49,714 nt of DNA, from NCBI GenBank assembly GCA_964390225.1, contig CAYMHP010000001.1:13609-63322 (forward strand), given 5' to 3'. Origin of the DNA: an uncultured Solibacteraceae bacterium (GTDB taxonomy: Bacteria > Acidobacteriota > Terriglobia > Bryobacterales > Bryobacteraceae). The position numbers and the translations under genes were made by a program. The notes beneath the pieces were generated by a model. It ran no database searches, had not been told where the DNA came from, and worked only from the letters and a program-made list of their open reading frames with translations. Positions 19,483 to 49,714 of this stretch are shown piece after piece. The first letter of the stretch is position 1; each line of letters starts with the position of its first letter.

Positions 19483-20349
19483 ATGCGCGCGAGAGCCCGA
19501 GCGGTGCTAGTGCTGGGTACCGCCCTCTTGCTGTGCTTTGCGTTCCTGTTGGCGGCCCAAGACACGGTGTACGTCTGCCCGATGGATCCGGACGTGCGCT
19601 CCCACGCGCCGGGGACCTGCTCCCGTTGCGGAATGAAACTCGTGGCGAACCTGCCCGATCCGGTCGAGTATTTGATGGATCTGATGGTGACGCCGCATCC
19701 CCTCAAACCGGGGCAGCCCGCCACGATCCAGATGAGCATCAAAGATCCGTGGAAGAACCGCCCCGTCACGCATTTCCAGATCGTTCACGAGAAGCTCTTT
19801 CACATGTTTGTGGTGAGCCAGGATCTCGAATTTTTCGTGCACGACCACCCGACGTTCAATCCGCAGACCGGCGAATTCGACTACGCCATCGCCTTTCCCA
19901 AACCGGGAATGTACCGCGTTCTTGGTGACTTTTACCCTGACGGCGCCACCCCGCAATTGATCGCAAAAACCGTGATTATCCCCGGAAAGGCGCCCGCGCC
20001 CGTGGTGTTGACCCAGGACTATTCGACGAAGAAGACCGCCAATCTACAGGTGGAACTAAAGACCGACCCGCCAGAACCGATCGTCGGCCAAAAGGTGCAG
20101 ATGTATTTTCGAGTGGCCCCGGTCGACGGCCTCGAAAAATACCTGGGCGCATGGGCGCACATGCTGGCGGCCAGCGACGACCTGATCGACCTGATCCACT
20201 CGCATCCGATCCTTGCCGACGGCGGTCCACAGATTCAGTTCAGCCTCGTATTTCCCCGCGCCCGGACGTTTCGCATCTGGGTGCAATTCCAGCGGAGCGG
20301 CGTCGTGAACACCGCGCGTTTCGACGTCCCGGTTAAAGAGCTGAAGTAA
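19483..20349 (+). CDS. secreted heavy-metal-binding-domain protein with two tandem His/Met-motif beta-sandwich repeats
   Basis: ATG at 19483 (M32 of the track ORF). Signal peptide, then YVCPMDPDV..CSRCGMKL (the YxCPMHPE-type metal-binding domain seen at the N-termini of copper/silver efflux proteins). Two internal repeats follow, each with H-M-x3-S-x-D-L-x4-H-x-H-P (FHMFVVSQDLEFFVHDHP and AHMLAASDDLIDLIHSHP). Confidence 0.7.
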   Translation: MRARARAVLVLGTALLLCFAFLLAAQDTVYVCPMDPDVRSHAPGTCSRCGMKLVANLPDPVEYLMDLMVTPHPLKPGQPATIQMSIKDPWKNRPVTHFQIVHEKLFHMFVVSQDLEFFVHDHPTFNPQTGEFDYAIAFPKPGMYRVLGDFYPDGATPQLIAKTVIIPGKAPAPVVLTQDYSTKKTANLQVELKTDPPEPIVGQKVQMYFRVAPVDGLEKYLGAWAHMLAASDDLIDLIHSHPILADGGPQIQFSLVFPRARTFRIWVQFQRSGVVNTARFDVPVKELK

Positions 20350-35110: not shown

Positions 35111-35491
35111 ATGCCCAAGATCCTGATCGTCGAGGACAACGAGATGAACCGCGACATGCTCCGGCGGCGGCTCGCTCGCAAGGGTTTTGAAACAATCGTA
35201 GCGGGCGATGGTTTGGACGGAGTCGCCATGGCTGCATCCGGTCAGCCGGACCTCATCCTCATGGACATGAGCCTTCCGGCGCTCGACGGGTGGGAAGCCA
35301 CCCGTCGAATCAAAGCATCTCCCGAAACCCATTCGATTCCGGTGATCGCCCTCACTGCTCACGCAATGGCGGGCGACCGTGAACGCGCCTTGGAGGCCGG
35401 ATGTGATGATTACGACACCAAACCCATCGAGTTCCCTGTGTTATTAGAGAAAATAGAGGCGCTGCTCGCCCACAGCCAATCGCGGCATTGA
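35111..35491 (+). CDS. single-domain (CheY-like) response regulator
   Basis: ATG at 35111 gives [30 protein letters not shown], and ALTAHA...DYDTKP. Confidence 0.9.
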
Positions 35492-43173: not shown

Positions 43174-43218
43174 TTGATTCCAATCGCAATTTGCAATATA
43201 TTTATCACAGATTGCGAT
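43174..43218 (+). promoter_or_regulatory. near-consensus sigma70-like promoter with embedded operator-like inverted repeat
   Basis: TTGATT (43174-43179), 17 nt, TATATT (43197-43202). Inverted repeat ATCGCAAT (43183-43190) / ATTGCGAT (43211-43218), plus a third related half-site TTTGCAAT (43190-43197). It ends directly at the XRE gene ATG (43219). Confidence 0.55.
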
Positions 43219-43734
43219 ATGCGGCTCGGCGAAAAAATCCGCTACCTCCGCGAAGTGGAAGGCACGCTTCGCGGACTCAACCGCGAGTTGTCCCAACTCG
43301 AACTCGCCCGCCTCATCGAAAAAGAGCAGGGCAAGTCCATTAGCCAGAGCTATCTTTCGCAAATCGAAAGTGGCAGCCGGCCGCACCTGACCAATTCCAC
43401 GCGTATGCTGCTGGCGCGTTTCTTCAAAGTGCATCCCGGTTACCTGGTGGATGATCCCGAGGGTTTCCAGAACGAGCTGATTTCCGATGTGGGAGCGCTC
43501 GAAGACAAGCTCGATCTCTGGCTGGTGAGCGGAGCCGAGCGGTTCTGCCGCGATCCCGAGTTGCACCACGCTCTGCTCGCCGTGGCGCGGCACGCCGATT
43601 CGCGGCTCTGCCTGGTGTTGTTGGGAAAGATCCTGGAGAATCCCGGTCTGGCCGAACGGCTGATGGAAGTGCTCAGGCCCGCTGCGGCGAAAGCCCCGTC
43701 GCCGGTAGCGACCGAGGCAAGGAGGCGCGCATGA
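43219..43734 (+). CDS. XRE-family helix-turn-helix transcriptional regulator with C-terminal helical extension
   Basis: ATG 43219 (M16 of the track ORF). HTH_3-like region LSQLELARLIEKEQGKSISQSYLSQIESG. About 90-aa C-terminal domain of unknown function. The stop overlaps the nfeD start (ATGA). Confidence 0.8.
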   Translation: MRLGEKIRYLREVEGTLRGLNRELSQLELARLIEKEQGKSISQSYLSQIESGSRPHLTNSTRMLLARFFKVHPGYLVDDPEGFQNELISDVGALEDKLDLWLVSGAERFCRDPELHHALLAVARHADSRLCLVLLGKILENPGLAERLMEVLRPAAAKAPSPVATEARRRA

Positions 43735-44312
43735 CCTGGTCGGATTTCTACCTCACCTGCTTCCTGATTGGCTTCGCGCTGAGCGCGCTCGCGCTGGTGG
43801 CGGGCACGACTCATCTGCATATGCCGCACCTCCACCTCCACCATGGGATCCACACGCCGCATGGCGGCTCCGGCGTGACGGTGCCTTGGTTCAACTTCGG
43901 CTCAATTGCCGGATTCCTGGCCTGGTTCGGCGGTACCGGTTACCTGCTCGAGCGCTATTACGGCGTCTGGGTCGTTACCGCGCTGGCCCTTTCGACCCTC
44001 AGCGGGCTCGCGGCGGCTTCGGTCGTCTTCTGGTTTCTGGCCAAGGTGCTGATCGCGCGCGAAGCGTCGCTGGACCCCGCTGATTACGAGATGGCCGGAG
44101 TGCTTGGCCGCGTGAGCATCCCCATCCGCACGGGTGGAACGGGTGAAATTATCTATTCCCAGGAGGGGACGCGCCGCGTTTGTGGCGCCCGCGCCGACGA
44201 GTCGATGGCCATCCCGAAAGGCGCCGAAGTGATTGTTACCCGCTACGAAAAAGGGATTGCGTACGTGCGCCCGTGGGTTGACCCGCTGGACGAGTTGGAG
44301 AACAAAGCTTAG
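43731..44312 (+). CDS. NfeD-family membrane protein (YqiJ-like), His-rich loop
   Basis: 193 aa. Three TM helices, then a C-terminal OB-fold-type NfeD segment (GVLGRVSIPIRTGGTGEIIY...AIPKGAEVIVTRYEKGIAYVRP). It lies immediately upstream of a flotillin, the classical NfeD-SPFH pairing. Confidence 0.8.
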   Translation: MTWSDFYLTCFLIGFALSALALVAGTTHLHMPHLHLHHGIHTPHGGSGVTVPWFNFGSIAGFLAWFGGTGYLLERYYGVWVVTALALSTLSGLAAASVVFWFLAKVLIAREASLDPADYEMAGVLGRVSIPIRTGGTGEIIYSQEGTRRVCGARADESMAIPKGAEVIVTRYEKGIAYVRPWVDPLDELENKA

Positions 44313-44324
44313 GAGTGCCCGACT

Positions 44325-45761
44325 ATGTATAACCCGACGTTCGTGATTGCCGGCCTCATGGTGCTGGCGCTTGTCTTCCTGATGGCCGTGTTTGCCAAGC
44401 TGTTCCGCAAAGCAGGGCCGCACGAGGCCCTCATCGTTTACGGTTTCCGCGGCACGCGCGTGGTAAAGGGCCGGGGCACCGTGATCTTCCCCATGGTCGA
44501 AAGCTGCCGTGGCTTGTCGCTCGAACTGATGTCGTTTGATGTGGCGCCGCAGCAGGACCTGTACACGCGGCAGGGCGTAGCCGTGACGGTGGAGGCCGTG
44601 GCGCAGATCAAGGTGAAGTCCGATCCGGAATCGATCCTCACCGCCGCCGAGCAGTTCCTTACCAAGCCGCCGCAGGAGCGCGAAGGGCTGATCCGCCTGG
44701 TGATGGAAGGCCACCTGCGCGGCATCATCGGCCAGCTCACGGTGGAAGAGATCGTCAAACAGCCCGAGATGGTGGGCGAGCGTATGCGGTCCACCTGCGC
44801 CGACGATATGAACAAGATGGGGCTTGAAGTCATTTCCTTCACCATCAAGGAAGTCCGCGACAAGAACGAATACATCACCAACATGGGCCGGCCCGATGTC
44901 GCGCGCATCAAGCGCGACGCCGATGTCGCCGCCGCGGAGGCCGAGCGCGATACGGCCATTAAGCGGGCCCTCGCTGCCCGGGAAGCGGCCATCGCCAAGG
45001 CTCAGGCCGACCAGGAACGCGTGCTCGCCGAGGCGCTGTCCATGACCAAGCAGGCCGAGGCGCAGCGCGACCTCGAAGTGAAGAAGGCCGAGTACAACGA
45101 GATGGTTAAGAAACAGCAGGCCCAGGCGGACAAGGCCTACGAGATCCAGACCAACGTCATGCAACAGCAAGTGCGTGCCGAAGAGGTCACCATTCACCAG
45201 ATTGAAAAAGAGCATGAAGTGAAGGTGCAGGAGGCCGAAATCAACCGCCGCGACCGCGAGCTGACGGCCACCGTGCTCAAACAGGCCGAATTCGAGCGCA
45301 AGCGCATCGAGACCCTGGCGGAAGCCGAGCGCCAGCGCCTGGTCGTGGAGGCCGAGGGACGCGCCGCCGCCATCCGTGCGCAGGGCGAAGCCGAAGCCGA
45401 AATCATTTTCAAGAAGGGTGAGGCCGAAGCCAAAGCGATGAACGTCAAGGCCGAGGCCTACCAGGAATTCAACCAGGCCGCGATCGTAGACAAGCTGATC
45501 ACCAATATGCCGGAGGTCGTCAAAGCGCTGGCCGCGCCTCTGGCCAACGTCGACAAGATCACCGTAGTATCCACCGGAAACGGTACCTCGGCGGGATTGA
45601 ACAAGATTACGGGTGACATCACCCAAATGGCGGCGCAAATCCCCGCGCTCTTCGAAACGCTTTCCGGCATGCCCCTGAATGAGCTGTTCGCGAAGGTGCG
45701 GATGATTGGCGATAAGTCGCCTAAGCCGGAGGACAAGTCCAAGTCCGCGGGCGCGCAATAA
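44325..45761 (+). CDS. flotillin (SPFH/Band-7 domain protein, FloT/YuaG-like)
   Basis: 478 aa. N-terminal membrane hairpin. SPFH core (VEAVAQIKV, LRGIIGQLTVEEI). A long Glu/Ala-rich coiled-coil flotillin domain (AEAERDTAIKRA...EAEGRAAAIRAQGEAEAE). Confidence 0.9.
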   Translation: MYNPTFVIAGLMVLALVFLMAVFAKLFRKAGPHEALIVYGFRGTRVVKGRGTVIFPMVESCRGLSLELMSFDVAPQQDLYTRQGVAVTVEAVAQIKVKSDPESILTAAEQFLTKPPQEREGLIRLVMEGHLRGIIGQLTVEEIVKQPEMVGERMRSTCADDMNKMGLEVISFTIKEVRDKNEYITNMGRPDVARIKRDADVAAAEAERDTAIKRALAAREAAIAKAQADQERVLAEALSMTKQAEAQRDLEVKKAEYNEMVKKQQAQADKAYEIQTNVMQQQVRAEEVTIHQIEKEHEVKVQEAEINRRDRELTATVLKQAEFERKRIETLAEAERQRLVVEAEGRAAAIRAQGEAEAEIIFKKGEAEAKAMNVKAEAYQEFNQAAIVDKLITNMPEVVKALAAPLANVDKITVVSTGNGTSAGLNKITGDITQMAAQIPALFETLSGMPLNELFAKVRMIGDKSPKPEDKSKSAGAQ

Positions 45762-45840
45762 ATATTCACCCCGTTCCGGGGCAGGGAACATTCAGCCCCT
45801 CCCGTAAGGGTGGGGGTAGGGAAACCGAAGGGAGGATCCC

Positions 45841-46503
45841 ATGGCACTGTTAGAACGCGTATCCACACTGATCCGGGCCAACCTCAACGACCTCATCGAC
45901 AAGGCCGAGGACCCCGAAAAGATGATCAAGCAACTGATCCTTGACATGGAGAACCAGCTGTTGCAGGTCAAAACCCAGGTCGCGATCTCCATCGCGGACC
46001 AGCATGTGCTCGAGAAAAAGCTGCAGGAGAACCAGGAAAACGAGCGGCAATGGATCCGCCGCGCCGAACTCGCCGTCGACAAAAAAGACGACGCGCTGGC
46101 GCGGGCCGCCATCGAGCGCTCGATGAGTTACAAAGGCATGACCGAGAGCTTCCGCCAGCAGGTGGAAGATCAGAAGACACAGGTCGAAAATCTGAAGACG
46201 GCACTGCTGAAATTGCAGCAGAAACTTGCGGAAGCGCAGGCCAAGAGCGAAATGCTCATCGCCCAGCACCGCCGCTCGCGCGCGATGGGGAAAGCCACGG
46301 AGGCCGGCGCCGCCATCGGCAACGGATCCAACGCCGCCGCCTTCGATCGCATGAAGGCCAAGGTGCAGCACACGGAGGCTGCCACCCAGGCGCACTCCGA
46401 GTTGCTGAGCGATGACGTGGAAGACCGCTTCGCCGCGCTCGAGAAACAGGACGAAATCAATCGCCTATTGGAGGAACTCAAGGCCAAGCGGAGCGCCGGA
46501 TAA
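45841..46503 (+). CDS. pspA: PspA/IM30 (ESCRT-III-like) family protein, paralogue 1
   Basis: 220 aa. N-terminus MALLERVSTLIRANLNDLIDKAEDPEKMIKQLILDMENQL parallels E. coli PspA (..NANINALLEKAEDPQK..MIQEME). All-helical coiled-coil composition. GGGAGGA RBS. Confidence 0.9.
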   Translation: MALLERVSTLIRANLNDLIDKAEDPEKMIKQLILDMENQLLQVKTQVAISIADQHVLEKKLQENQENERQWIRRAELAVDKKDDALARAAIERSMSYKGMTESFRQQVEDQKTQVENLKTALLKLQQKLAEAQAKSEMLIAQHRRSRAMGKATEAGAAIGNGSNAAAFDRMKAKVQHTEAATQAHSELLSDDVEDRFAALEKQDEINRLLEELKAKRSAG

Positions 46504-46598
46504 TGGAACTTCGGCGCCGCCGGTCGCGTACTCCATTAGGTGGCGCACGCCTCCGGCTTGCGCGGGCGCGCAGCGCCTCAATCGCTTGAGCCGCGAGG

Positions 46599-46629
46599 CG
46601 CCCGGTTACAAAAACGCCCGGTTACAAAA
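46599..46629 (+). repeat. tandem direct repeat, 2 x CGCCCGGTTACAAAA (period 16 nt)
   Basis: Exact 15-nt copies at 46599-46613 and 46615-46629. They sit in the 141-nt gap between pspA-1 and the chaperone-like gene, 16 nt upstream of its ATG and 8 nt upstream of its GAGGAG RBS. Confidence 0.9.
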
Positions 46630-46644
46630 CAAATACGAGGAGCT

Positions 46645-47064
46645 ATGACACTTACAACCAGCCCACAACTCGACCAAATTCACGCCCTGCTGGCGGAGCA
46701 CGGTTACGAAGTCTCCGAGCGGGCGCCCGACACTCTTCGCATCCAGGAGGTGCAGAGCGGAGTGGCCATTCAGGCCGTGCTTCAGGGACAAATCCTGTTC
46801 CTGTCTCTGACCTGCACCACGGTGCCTCGCTCCGCGATCACGCCGGACCTCATGAACCGCATGCTCGCGGCGGATAATGGCATCTCCACTTCCCATTTTC
46901 AGCTCTATGAGCTGGGCGGCAGCCAGGTGGCCGTTACGTTGAACAATTTTTGCAAACTGCAGGATATGGGGCCCGAGGACGAAGACGACATTCTCTCGTG
47001 CGTCCATTTCCTGCTGGTGGACGTATTGAGTGCGCGCCGGCTGCTCAGCGACCTTCAATCATAA
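46645..47064 (+). CDS. YjfI/DUF2170-like protein (YbjN / CesT-type chaperone fold candidate)
   Basis: ATG 46645 (M36 of the track ORF), preceded by GAGGAG. The 139-aa acidic protein has a pattern (QAVLQGQILFLSLTC...MNRMLAADNGISTSHFQL...VAVTLNN) that resembles E. coli YjfI as I remember it. It sits directly upstream of a YjfJ-like PspA, as in yjfIJ. Confidence 0.6.
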   Translation: MTLTTSPQLDQIHALLAEHGYEVSERAPDTLRIQEVQSGVAIQAVLQGQILFLSLTCTTVPRSAITPDLMNRMLAADNGISTSHFQLYELGGSQVAVTLNNFCKLQDMGPEDEDDILSCVHFLLVDVLSARRLLSDLQS

Positions 47065-47078
47065 AAGGAGAATGAACT

Positions 47079-47867
47079 ATGTCATTTCTGAACGACTTCT
47101 TTAGCAGACTGGGCCGCGTGGCCCGCGGCCAGGCCAACCAAGGCGTGGATGTCATCGAGGATGCCACCTTCGAAGCGACCGTCAAACAGACCGTCGCCGA
47201 TATGAAGAACGAGCTGAACAACGTGGTCCGTGCCTCCGCGTCGGCCATGAGCAACTACAACCGTCTGGATGCCGAGTATCAGAAGTACGTGCGGCAGGCT
47301 CAGGAATGGAAGGATCGCGCCGGACAGGCTCTCGACGCCGGCAACGAGGATCTCGCCCGCAAGGCACTGGCGAAAAAGACCGAGTGCGACCGGCAAGCGG
47401 CTTCCATGCAACAGGGGGTCGCCTCCGCTCAGCAGGCCAGCGAAAAACTCAAGCAGCAGGTCGCCGAGTTGAAGCGTAAGATCGACGAGGGTGAGCGCAC
47501 TGCTACTACTCTGGTGGCGCGCAAGAATGCCGCGTCGGCGCAGCGCAAAGTCTCCGAAGCCATGGCGGGCGTCGGCAATGCCGACAATGCTTTCTCCGCC
47601 TTGAGCCGCTTCGAGGAATCGGTGGCGCGCGAAGAAGCCACTGCCAAGGCCTTCGATGAACTCGCCTCCACCGGCAAGGACGAAGATCTCGAAAAACAAT
47701 TCGCCGAACTCGGCGGCAAGGGGGTCGATGCCGAACTGGCAGCATTGAAACAGGAGCGGCAGCAGGGGGCATCGAAGCCCGCGGCTCCGTACCTGCCCAA
47801 AGAACTGCCTGCCGGCGGCACTTCGCTTCAAGTGGGGCAATCTGCCAGAGACAAGGCCAACGCATAG
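47079..47867 (+). CDS. PspA/IM30 family protein, paralogue 2 (YjfJ-like)
   Basis: 262 aa. AAGGAG RBS. An amphipathic N-terminus MSFLNDFFSRLGRV, a long coiled coil, and a C-terminal KDEDLEKQFAELGG block resembling the YjfJ tail (DLDEKLAEAGIGG). Confidence 0.85.
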   Translation: MSFLNDFFSRLGRVARGQANQGVDVIEDATFEATVKQTVADMKNELNNVVRASASAMSNYNRLDAEYQKYVRQAQEWKDRAGQALDAGNEDLARKALAKKTECDRQAASMQQGVASAQQASEKLKQQVAELKRKIDEGERTATTLVARKNAASAQRKVSEAMAGVGNADNAFSALSRFEESVAREEATAKAFDELASTGKDEDLEKQFAELGGKGVDAELAALKQERQQGASKPAAPYLPKELPAGGTSLQVGQSARDKANA

Positions 47868-47880
47868 CCGCTGAACCCCG

Positions 47881-48510
47881 ATGGCTACGTTCTTCATCCT
47901 GGCCATTCTGATCGTTCTGCTAGGAGTCGTGCTGATGCAACTCTTCAGGAAACCCGTCGCGAGCCCGAGACCCGCGGCCGATCTTGCGAACCTCAAGGTC
48001 ACCGACGCCCGTGCCGGAGATGTACTTTCCGTCGCGGGCGCCGGAGACGACCTGAGCGACCTCGATTTCACCGCCGATCGCTCGGTGTGGTATGACGCCG
48101 GCGGCCCGCGCTGGTTCGAACTGAGCGGCCCCTACCGCGAGCGCCGCGTGGCGCTCCGCGTCGTCGCGGGTGAAGACACCGAGGTCGCGCTACACAGCGA
48201 TCCCCGGAAGCTGATGTTGGACGATCTCGGCCTCTCCGAGCAGGATCTGGCCGACATCGACGAGCGTCAAAACCCCGCCGACTCGTTCGAATTCGACGGC
48301 AAAGTCTGGCTGTATCGCCGCAGCCGCGAGGTGAAAGCCTTCCGCGACGGCCAGCCCCAGCCCTCCGCGTTTTACTACTGGGAGTTCCAGGAAGATGGAG
48401 GCAAACGCCTGCTGGCCATTCGCAAACCCGAGGGCGAGCCATTCGCCGTCGTTCTGTATACCGGAATTCCCGAGGGAGATGTCACCGTTTACCGGCCGAC
48501 GCCGCAATAG
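47881..48510 (+). CDS. membrane-anchored DUF4178-like protein (YjfK-position)
   Basis: 209 aa. N-terminal TM helix FFILAILIVLLGVVLMQLF. Two beta-rich half-repeats (GDVLSVAG..DFTADRSVWYD..WFEL..RVALRV and FEFDGKVWLY..YYWEF..LLAIRK..AVVLYTG). The family call is tentative. Confidence 0.55.
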   Translation: MATFFILAILIVLLGVVLMQLFRKPVASPRPAADLANLKVTDARAGDVLSVAGAGDDLSDLDFTADRSVWYDAGGPRWFELSGPYRERRVALRVVAGEDTEVALHSDPRKLMLDDLGLSEQDLADIDERQNPADSFEFDGKVWLYRRSREVKAFRDGQPQPSAFYYWEFQEDGGKRLLAIRKPEGEPFAVVLYTGIPEGDVTVYRPTPQ

Positions 48511-48522
48511 GAGGCGTGTTCC

Positions 48523-49714
48523 ATGAGCCGAACCCAATTGAAAATCTCTGCCGCCGTTCTCACGACGCTGATCGTCGCCGTACTGATCAACGCGTTCGAT
48601 CATCTGCCGGGGAGCGTTCGCGCGCAGATCGATAGTGAACGCGCGGCGCTCGCCTCCGCAGGGTCGCGCGTGACCAGCGCGCAGCAAACGGTTGCTCGCG
48701 AAACCAAGGCCGACCCCGCTCTCTTCCAGACGGTCGCGGCGAGTAGCCAGTGGCCGGCCCGATTCCAGCAGTCCGCCGGAGTTCTCGATTCCGCCAAACG
48801 CGACATGGAGGAACTCTCGCGCCTCGAGAAGTCCGGCCATCACCGCGACCAGCAGCGTGCTACCACTCTGCTCGCCCACGAACGCGGCCTGCGCGAGTCG
48901 GCGTTGAACCAGGCGGCCGCCATCGAAAGCGAGGCCGCGCGTTGGACCGAGCGCAAGCAGCACCTCGCTTCCGAATTGCAGCAGATGGAGCATGATTATC
49001 AGGCGATCCGCGCCTTCGATACGGCTCCCCTCACCGCGACCATCCAGCGCGCCGAGACCGATTGGCCGGAAAAGAAGTCCGATCTCGAATCGCGCCTGGC
49101 CGCGGTTACCGGCATTCCCGCCCAGTCGGAGACGCTCTGGCAATCGAGCGCGGGGCTCCGGCATCAGGCCGCCGCGGGAGACACGAAAGATCTCGATTTC
49201 GGTGCGCTGTTCGCCACTGCCGACCAGCTAAAGGCCTCGGCCGCCGCGCTGCCCAAGCAATCCGCGGAACTCGAATCCCTCGCCGGCCAGCTATACGATT
49301 CGTGGGACAAGATCCTGGTCGATATGGACGTGCGCGGCATCGGATCCAACCGCGCCTTCGACCAGAAAATCCGCACCGTGCGTACGCACCTCGGCAACAC
49401 CACCTCGGACGAAAAATGGGTGCAGGTTTCACCGGCCACCTACGATGCCATGCGGAGCGACCTCGGCATGGCAATCGAGCACAAGCCCGCCGGCAAGTAC
49501 GATTCGGAAGCCGAGCACGTTGCGCAGCCCGCCGGCTTCGCTTACATGGCGCCGCCGTCCCAAGGCTCGAACCAATACGGTTATTGGGAGCATCGCGATG
49601 GCCAGAGCTTCTGGGTGTGGTACGGCAAGTACGCGCTCCTGCGCGATCTGCTCTTCAATCACTCCTATCGTCCGCTCCCGCAGTACGAGTGGGAGGGCTA
49701 CCGCAGCTCGCGCA
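48523..49714 (+). CDS. membrane-anchored coiled-coil protein of unknown family (3' end outside window)
   Basis: Not in the ORF track because it has no stop in the window. ATG 48523 has GGAGG 9 nt upstream. The frame stays open for 397 codons to the window edge. N-terminal TM helix ISAAVLTTLIVAVLINAF, about 250 aa of helical/coiled-coil sequence, then a Trp/Tyr-rich segment (GYWEHRDGQSFWVWYGKYALLRDLLF). Confidence 0.65.
   Translation, partial: MSRTQLKISAAVLTTLIVAVLINAFDHLPGSVRAQIDSERAALASAGSRVTSAQQTVARETKADPALFQTVAASSQWPARFQQSAGVLDSAKRDMEELSRLEKSGHHRDQQRATTLLAHERGLRESALNQAAAIESEAARWTERKQHLASELQQMEHDYQAIRAFDTAPLTATIQRAETDWPEKKSDLESRLAAVTGIPAQSETLWQSSAGLRHQAAAGDTKDLDFGALFATADQLKASAAALPKQSAELESLAGQLYDSWDKILVDMDVRGIGSNRAFDQKIRTVRTHLGNTTSDEKWVQVSPATYDAMRSDLGMAIEHKPAGKYDSEAEHVAQPAGFAYMAPPSQGSNQYGYWEHRDGQSFWVWYGKYALLRDLLFNHSYRPLPQYEWEGYRSSR

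Follow-up and report, generated by a model that had tools for sequence, protein, structure and literature searches.

The 3′ end of a 49,714-nt stretch of DNA from an uncultured Solibacteraceae bacterium (contig CAYMHP010000001.1; the whole stretch is called the window in the following) carries eight closely packed genes on one strand, running from position 43174 to the window end. Two of them encode PspA/IM30 proteins, here named PspA-1 and PspA-2, and between these two lies the gene of a small acidic protein of 139 amino acids (aa). The three reading frames of 220, 139 and 262 aa listed in a first-pass annotation of this DNA were confirmed in position and length. Nearest relatives of the locus are metagenome-assembled genomes of Bryobacterales/Solibacteraceae in the phylum Acidobacteriota. 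We describe the genes as two units: module A, with a helix-turn-helix (HTH) regulator of XRE type, an NfeD-like membrane protein, flotillin and PspA-1, and module B, with the 139-aa protein, PspA-2, a DUF4178-like protein and a protein with transmembrane and coiled-coil segments (Table 1). Gaps within module B measure 12–14 nt and those within module A range from a 4-nt overlap up to 79 nt; the widest gap, 141 nt between PspA-1 and the 139-aa gene, falls exactly at the boundary of the two modules.

For module B, 80 genome loci with relatives of the 139-aa protein were compared, and all eight window proteins were mapped onto each of them. In all 80, which are Bryobacterales loci, the genes of the 139-aa protein, PspA-2, the DUF4178-like protein and the fourth protein occur closely spaced and in the same order. 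Within 6 kb upstream of module B, neither PspA-1 nor the flotillin, NfeD-like or HTH gene was found in any of them (0/80), and no conserved gene upstream of the 139-aa gene was common to more than eight. Wherever the contig of a related locus is long enough to judge, the 139-aa gene is followed by a PspA-2-type gene after 14–90 nt. A distant set comprised family members from other lineages with 29–50% identity to the 139-aa protein; six of these loci could be judged, the contig of a seventh being too short, and in all six a PspA_IM30 gene directly follows the 139-aa homologue. DUF4178 comes after PspA in L166, L168, L170 and L172, where the orthologues are annotated as PF13785 and are 28–36% identical to the window's protein. 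The next gene in L166, L168 and L172 encodes a protein of 471–484 aa without a Pfam family, and the contigs of L164, L165 and L170 end earlier. All four core products in the distant loci are orthologous to those of the window. The operons of L166 and L172 extend further into DUF350 and spermine synthase genes, that of L166 also into a K+ channel gene. The Bryobacterales locus L007 has neither DUF350 nor spermine synthase, and its fourth gene is succeeded by a convergent one; the window itself ends inside the fourth gene.

Module A was sampled in 80 metagenome loci around PspA-1 relatives. The order HTH, NfeD-like, flotillin and PspA-1 is kept in all 80 as far as the contigs reach. PspA-1 closes the block each time, and in no case is it followed by the 139-aa gene (0/80). 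The head-to-tail adjacency of module A and then module B occurs only in this genome, and the bracketing of the 139-aa gene by two PspAs is incidental and in itself without special meaning. Elsewhere the modules adjoin in two loci, L075 and L086, and L011, with an HTH match only, is a probable third case; the order in these loci is B and then A. The sole other copy of the PspA-1/139-aa/PspA-2 arrangement is an independent short-read contig (L082, Logan SRR36607662, 1328 nt) that is 100% identical to window positions 45896–47223. The junction between PspA-1 and the 139-aa gene is hence unlikely to be an assembly artefact. In search of a rearrangement scar, the 141-nt junction was compared with the sequences flanking module A or module B across 160 loci, which gave short chance matches only.

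Table 1. Genes and regulatory features of the two modules (all coordinates in the window; TM, transmembrane segment)
Feature	Position	Strand	Description
Module A promoter	43174–43218	+	Sigma-70-like TTGATT-17-TATATT, overlapped by two palindromic operators; promoter scan
Palindromic operators	43183–43197 (ATCGCAATTTGCAAT); 43204–43218 (ATCACAGATTGCGAT)	+	21 nt apart, reaching the HTH start codon
XRE-type HTH regulator	43219–43734	+	Pfam HTH_3 E 6e-06, above cut-off; start MRLGEKIRYL...
NfeD/YuaF/YqiJ-like membrane protein	43731–44312	+	193 aa; start overlaps HTH stop by 4 nt
Flotillin (SPFH/Band_7 + Flot)	44325–45761	+	Band_7 1e-28, Flot 3e-08; NCBIfam FloT 5e-100; flotillin-1 9l3g E 1.8e-82
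PspA-1	45841–46503	+	220 aa, PspA/IM30; terminal gene of module A
ECF-sigma-like promoter of module B (putative)	46505–46530	+	GGAACTTCGGCGCCGCCGGTCGCGTA; GGAAC-N17-CGTA from 2 nt after PspA-1 stop; pattern match
Tandem direct repeat, two copies of CGCCCGGTTACAAAA	46599–46613; 46615–46629	+	Period 16; module B leader; window-specific, read from sequence
139-aa acidic protein	46645–47064	+	YbjN/DUF2170/CesT-like fold; ATG after GAGGAG; first gene of module B
PspA-2	47079–47867	+	262 aa, IM30 paralogue; starts 14 nt past 139-aa gene
DUF4178-like protein with N-terminal TM	47881–48510	+	13 nt past PspA-2; Pfam DUF4178 E 0.002, below cut-off
Protein with TM, coiled coil and conserved C-terminal domain	48523–49714, runs off window	+	Fourth gene of module B

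Both PspAs belong to Pfam family PspA_IM30 (PF04012, curated cut-off 33.9 bits), PspA-1 with E 9e-39 and 133.7 bits and PspA-2 with E 3e-40 and 138.6 bits. Both can be aligned along their entire length with solved chains of Vipp1/PspA, at a best E of 1.4e-36 (PspA-1) and 6e-27 (PspA-2), and PspA-1 also matches TIGR02977 (1e-38). The two share 29% identity over 205 residues, and each has its own orthologues, at 65–90% identity, in other Bryobacterales. They are hence old paralogues, in agreement with the statement of the first-pass annotation that they are not recent duplicates. It was also right in giving PspA-1 a classical PspA N-terminus and PspA-2 a different one. The match to E. coli PspA has E 4e-17 for PspA-1 (residues 1–145) compared with 3e-07 for PspA-2, and the hydrophobic moment of residues 2–19 is 0.42 in PspA-1 and 0.56 in PspA-2, whose N-terminal helix is the more amphipathic one and net positive. 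By this measure an amphipathic, membrane-binding N-terminal helix (alpha-0) is predicted for both proteins.

The same annotation had described the C-terminal tail of PspA-2 as YjfJ-like, which did not hold: a BLASTP comparison with E. coli YjfJ gave E 2.9. The tail is instead a lineage-specific Pro-rich extension of 35–45 aa, found in Bryobacterales (in the window 47775–47867, residues ~233–262). It carries the motif PP(Y)(L/I)PKEL in 40 of 48 Bryobacterales orthologues. Distant orthologues lack this extension, which might serve for docking as a short linear motif. A small neighbour-joining tree splits a group of the PspA-1 clade and E. coli PspA from a group of PspA-2-type proteins and E. coli YjfJ (bootstrap 75/100), despite the lack of a significant direct match between PspA-2 and YjfJ. 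Furthermore, the partner PspAs of distant 139-aa family members are 35–52% identical to PspA-2, but only 25–33% to PspA-1. From the tree and these identities it follows that PspA-2 is probably part of an IM30 lineage that is old and chaperone-associated and falls on the side of YjfJ.

The 139-aa protein is acidic, with a pI of 4.49 and 17 Asp and Glu against 7 Lys and Arg residues. An AlphaFold2 model, built on an alignment of 22 diverse family members, reached a predicted local distance difference test score (pLDDT) of 93.1 and a predicted template modelling score (pTM) of 0.84, with the topology a-b-b-b-b-a-b-b-a. In Foldseek searches the model matched YbjN (6vu7) with a template modelling (TM) score of 0.66–0.69, AmyR (5fr7) with 0.64 and, over 139–141 aligned columns, 8q8o with 0.69–0.71 (E 4e-04). 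The last entry, described on deposition as a DUF2170 protein, is Pseudomonas aeruginosa PA14_16140 (BacA) and is homologous in sequence to E. coli YjfI (E 1e-16). Type III chaperones matched more weakly (TM score 0.5–0.64), namely SycN/YscB, ligand-bound ExsC (3kxy), SicP and CesT. With these matches to YbjN, 8q8o and the chaperones, the YbjN/CesT-type fold named in the first-pass annotation proved correct in the predicted model. In size, acidity and predicted fold the protein resembles class I type III chaperones, whose topology is alpha-beta-beta-beta-alpha-beta-beta-alpha; no secretion genes lie beside it, and its neighbours are PspA, DUF4178 and the transmembrane/coiled-coil protein in all loci.

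The further proposal that it resembles YjfI/DUF2170 stands at the level of fold (8q8o) and gene context and fails at the level of sequence. BLASTP against YjfI gave no match, and the protein had none in Pfam (to E 10) or NCBIfam, nor did the family profile among PDB sequences. None of the 22 family members matched DUF2170, YbjN or CesT in Pfam (DUF2170 at E≤1), and hhalign of the family against YjfI alone or YjfI with BacA returned probabilities of 0.1–0.4. With every sequence search negative, we rejected sequence-level membership of the protein in YjfI/DUF2170, YbjN or CesT. The PspAA domain of Ravi et al. (PMC11237479) was likewise weighed as the identity of the middle gene and rejected. The 139-aa protein is one of a small family (2504 proteins at 90% clustering, 94 clusters at 50% identity), whose alignment shows a conserved motif, ADNGISTSxFQL...TLNNFCKLQxLGxDDxDDILSC. 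In one member, P0132 (L172, 5001–5642), an N-terminal HTH_17 domain (E 7e-11) is fused to the 139-aa domain. This protein heads a module-B-type operon that continues with PspA, DUF4178, a 478-aa protein, DUF350 and spermine synthase, in a 6.45-Mb genome. Another protein, P0200 (1106 aa, without a Pfam domain), matches the family in three stretches and might hold repeats of the domain.

Promoters of extracytoplasmic function (ECF) sigma factors combine a GGAAC −35 element with a CGT(A) −10 element at a fixed spacing of about 16–17 nt. A match to this pattern opens the junction behind PspA-1. GGAAC-N-CGTA lies 40–58 nt from the 139-aa start codon in 67 of 79 loci, compared with 84 of 6944 background windows (1.2%), and 65 of the 67 have a spacer of precisely 17 nt, as does the window. 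The motif suggests that module B has an ECF-sigma-like promoter of its own, separate from that of module A. A second match in the window (35411–35435, minus strand) falls within the coding sequence of a response regulator and was set aside as a chance match. Compared with relatives, the window has a leader ~85 nt longer in front of the 139-aa gene, and the CGCCCGGTTACAAAA repeat in this leader is absent from all related loci.

At the other end of the locus, the module A promoter is overlapped by operators of 15 nt each, with the palindromic consensus ATYRCAR-N-TTGCNAT. Strict matches in the 49.7-kb window are these two only, with one looser match at 19976 on the minus strand, and 26 of 30 related module A loci have at least one such palindrome 5′ of their HTH gene. 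A mechanical listing had started the HTH gene at TTG 43174; this was rejected, since ATG 43219 and the promoter are aligned and conserved across L084–L153. Promoter and operators abut this ATG, so that the gene starts there, which implies a nearly leaderless mRNA. The operator layout implies that the HTH protein probably represses its own gene.

A cassette of the module A type, TTGACA with a ATTGCAAT-type palindrome pair ~70–180 nt upstream of the 139-aa gene, is duplicated 5′ of module B's ECF-like motif in 20 of 78 Bryobacterales loci. Thirteen of these have the full pair, against a background of 26 full pairs in 8276 windows (loci with the cassette at module B: L003, L009, L013, L020, L024, L027, L029, L043, L044, L052, L054, L056 and L058). 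As the cassette is common to both modules in these 20 loci, a shared XRE regulator is possible there, which suggests that this regulator may control both PspA modules in some species.

Related arrangements have been described. Ravi et al. 2024 (mSystems, PMC11237479) reported dyads of CesT/Tir and PspA, combined with band-7/flotillin and YqiJ/YuaF genes, and a second group with the order CesT_Tir(DUF2170)-PspA-DUF4178 together with DUF350 and spermine synthase, e.g., SO_3765 of Shewanella oneidensis. Module B is a short form of this CesT/Tir-PspA-DUF4178(-DUF350-spermine synthase) operon type. The order of chaperone-fold gene, PspA and DUF4178 equals that at 46645–48510, and distant members of the 139-aa family likewise reach DUF350, spermine synthase and a K+ channel. 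In contrast to the published operons, the chaperone-fold protein of the window is missed by the DUF2170 and CesT Pfam models, the Bryobacterales version is a four-gene core without polyamine genes, and it includes a conserved transmembrane/coiled-coil protein of 470–520 aa without a Pfam family.

A small YbjN/CesT-fold gene directly 5′ of a divergent PspA paralogue, as in module B, is also found in the bac operon of P. aeruginosa (BacA, PA3732/PA14_16140; BacB, PA3731, PspA-like) and in E. coli yjfI-yjfJ-yjfK-yjfL. The parallels include the fold similarity to 8q8o and the position of module B's partner PspA on the YjfJ side of the small tree. For the bac genes, negative regulation and a BacA–BacB interaction have been proposed: a bacA mutant accumulates the other Bac proteins, a strong BacA–BacB interaction is cited as unpublished work (PMC10948618), and AlphaFold2 gives the pair an interaction probability of 0.981 (PMC13092808). 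That a chaperone-fold protein binds or regulates its PspA is therefore a proposal already made for BacA–BacB. The yjfIJ genes of the enterobacterial relative, E. coli yjfIJKL, have lately been linked to heat tolerance (PMC12492005). Module B differs in lacking sequence similarity to YjfI/BacA and a significant match of PspA-2 to YjfJ, in having DUF4178 and not DUF2491 as its third gene, and in coming from Acidobacteriota; its DUF4178-like protein shows no similarity to E. coli YjfK (DUF2491). A further, purely mechanistic analogy is offered by the ExsC-ExsE-ExsD-ExsA cascade of the P. aeruginosa type III secretion system. ExsC is among the structural matches, and its occupancy by one ligand controls transcription; in contrast, no secretion system and no ExsD-like or AraC-type partner was identified at our locus.

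The classical PspF-PspABC system of E. coli shares with the locus a PspA that is similar to PspA-1 over residues 1–145, including the N-terminal DLIDKAEDPEKMI motif. Control is different here, with an XRE-HTH regulator and operators at module A and an ECF-like promoter at module B, and neither pspF, the gene of the sigma-54 activator, nor pspB or pspC is among the eight genes of the two modules. The first-pass annotation had presented the small protein as a regulatory logic different from PspA-PspF. As a novelty this claim is anticipated, as both the CesT/Tir-PspA dyad (PMC11237479) and a regulator role of DUF2170 proteins (PMC10948618) have been published.

A regulatory or holding role of the 139-aa protein, for PspA-2 only, is plausible because of BacA/BacB, ExsC and the HTH_17 fusion within the family. 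The fusion, together with the shared XRE operator, mildly supports the regulatory side. With moderate confidence we favour the view that two separate envelope-stress units abut at this locus, and that the 139-aa protein is a dedicated partner of PspA-2 with holdase action and a likely feedback. Module A (43174–46503) would be an autoregulated operon, transcribed from a sigma-70-type promoter that bears two palindromes as operators. With its ECF-sigma-type promoter, module B (46505 to beyond 49714) would provide the 139-aa protein, PspA-2, the DUF4178 protein and the transmembrane/coiled-coil protein. The 139-aa protein would associate with PspA-2 only, binding its non-polymerised form as a type III chaperone binds an effector, and so keep it assembly-incompetent. 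Recruitment of PspA-2 to damaged membrane would then set the 139-aa protein free. In the likeliest form of the model, transcription of the operon would also respond to whether this protein is free or bound, similar to BacA and to partner switching by ExsC. The loci themselves show which genes are present, their strict co-inheritance and order, the fold as predicted and the conserved motifs; binding, holdase action and feedback are steps that we infer with the help of BacA–BacB, ExsC and the HTH_17 fusion.

Several observations weigh against this model. In the window the ECF-like motif lies 140 nt from the ATG, compared with the usual 40–58 nt, and within the window alone GGAAC-N-CGTA is not significant (2 matches, 0.83 expected). 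The motif was absent from the five distant loci checked (L164–L166, L168 and L170). A scan found no intrinsic terminator on the plus strand between PspA-1 and the 139-aa gene, so that read-through from module A is possible in this genome; the folding z-score of the junction is −1.16, with no unusually stable structure. Homology of the 139-aa family to DUF2170, YbjN or CesT could not be detected in sequence, and the BacA analogy is hence one of fold and gene order only. Finally, the HTH fusion represents one cluster of 94.

An alternative explanation would dispense with the feedback: the 139-aa protein would serve PspA-2 purely as an assembly chaperone (holdase) and take no part in transcription. 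The small, acidic protein with its type III-chaperone-like fold would fit this role, the 14-nt gap to PspA-2 suggests coupled, stoichiometric synthesis, and most family members are without a DNA-binding domain. We nevertheless regard this explanation as unlikely, if worth keeping in mind, because the closest structural matches YbjN, AmyR and BacA are described as regulators (PMC10948618), one family member carries the HTH_17 fusion, and bacA deletion raises the protein levels of its operon (PMC10948618).

Going further in the opposite direction, one may speculate that the family is a PspA-2-sensing partner-switch regulator. The protein, freed upon polymerisation of PspA-2 on damaged membrane, would then control its own ECF-type promoter, the HTH_17 variant would bind DNA directly, and in Bryobacterales the loop would be tied to the flotillin-PspA-1 operon via the shared XRE operator. 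We consider this extended scheme doubtful as a whole. If true, it would constitute a PspF-independent feedback loop for an IM30 protein, and the window would show two parts of one regulon physically joined.

It is also conceivable that the 139-aa protein does not bind PspA-2 and acts on the DUF4178 or the transmembrane/coiled-coil protein, or that it is a general YbjN-like stress regulator. The genes of both proteins are as strictly co-conserved with the 139-aa gene as PspA-2 is, and YbjN-family roles are pleiotropic and poorly defined (PMC10948618). However, the 139-aa gene always directly adjoins the PspA gene, there are both a prediction and a report that the analogous DUF2170 protein binds the PspA-like protein encoded beside it (PMC13092808, PMC10948618), and in E. 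coli the yjfI-yjfJ dyad is ordered likewise and followed by another third gene (DUF2491), which makes this explanation improbable. The proposal of the first-pass annotation, in which the small protein stands between two partners and bridges two polymers or holds either IM30 paralogue, with PspA-chaperone-PspA as a functional unit, could draw on the adjacency of the three genes on one strand without a recognisable terminator, on possible co-regulation through the XRE operator and on the neighbouring modules of L075 and L086, yet it is very improbable given that the arrangement occurs in 0 of 160 other loci (0/80 and 0/80), that neighbouring modules elsewhere have the reversed order, that distant family members are paired with PspA-2-type proteins only, and that a conserved module B promoter motif separates PspA-1 from the 139-aa gene.

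How PspA/IM30, the bacterial ESCRT-III, is controlled beyond the PspF and Lia paradigms is still little understood. Of the solutions that are still uncharacterised, dyads of a chaperone-fold protein and a PspA are the most widespread; E. coli yjfIJ and the bac operon of P. aeruginosa are among them. To these the locus adds a sequence-divergent family of chaperone-fold partners that is missing from Pfam, candidate promoter and operator elements, and a natural HTH fusion, and they provide handles on whether the partner holds, delivers or senses IM30. In comparison with published work we regard as mildly new the unannotated 139-aa family, the HTH_17 fusion, the ECF-like promoter and, in some species, an operator that both PspA modules have in common.

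Among the remaining genes of module A, the NfeD-like protein has weak sequence matches (Pfam NfeD, E 0.062; Bacillus subtilis YuaF, 2k14, E 0.82), and its gene lies 5′ of flotillin in all module A loci. With this putative NfeD/YuaF-like membrane protein followed by a FloT-like flotillin, module A may correspond to the B. subtilis yuaF-floT operon. It differs from yuaF-floT in that it opens with a putatively autoregulated XRE-HTH gene and closes with a PspA gene. Associations of flotillin with PspA have been described previously (PMC11237479). Past the flotillin stop, in the 79-nt gap before PspA-1, a GC-rich hairpin (CACCCCG-TTC-CGGGGCA, 45767–45783) was seen that scanned as terminator-like on the minus strand only.

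In module B, the fourth gene is kept in the operon as strictly as PspA and DUF4178. Its orthologue in L007 (7909–9462) has a full length of 517 aa and is without a Pfam family. Across loci the product measures 470–520 aa and has an N-terminal transmembrane segment, a long coiled coil and a conserved C-terminal domain, ...YGxWExxDGxSFWVxYGxYALLRDLLF..., which is followed by a low-complexity tail.

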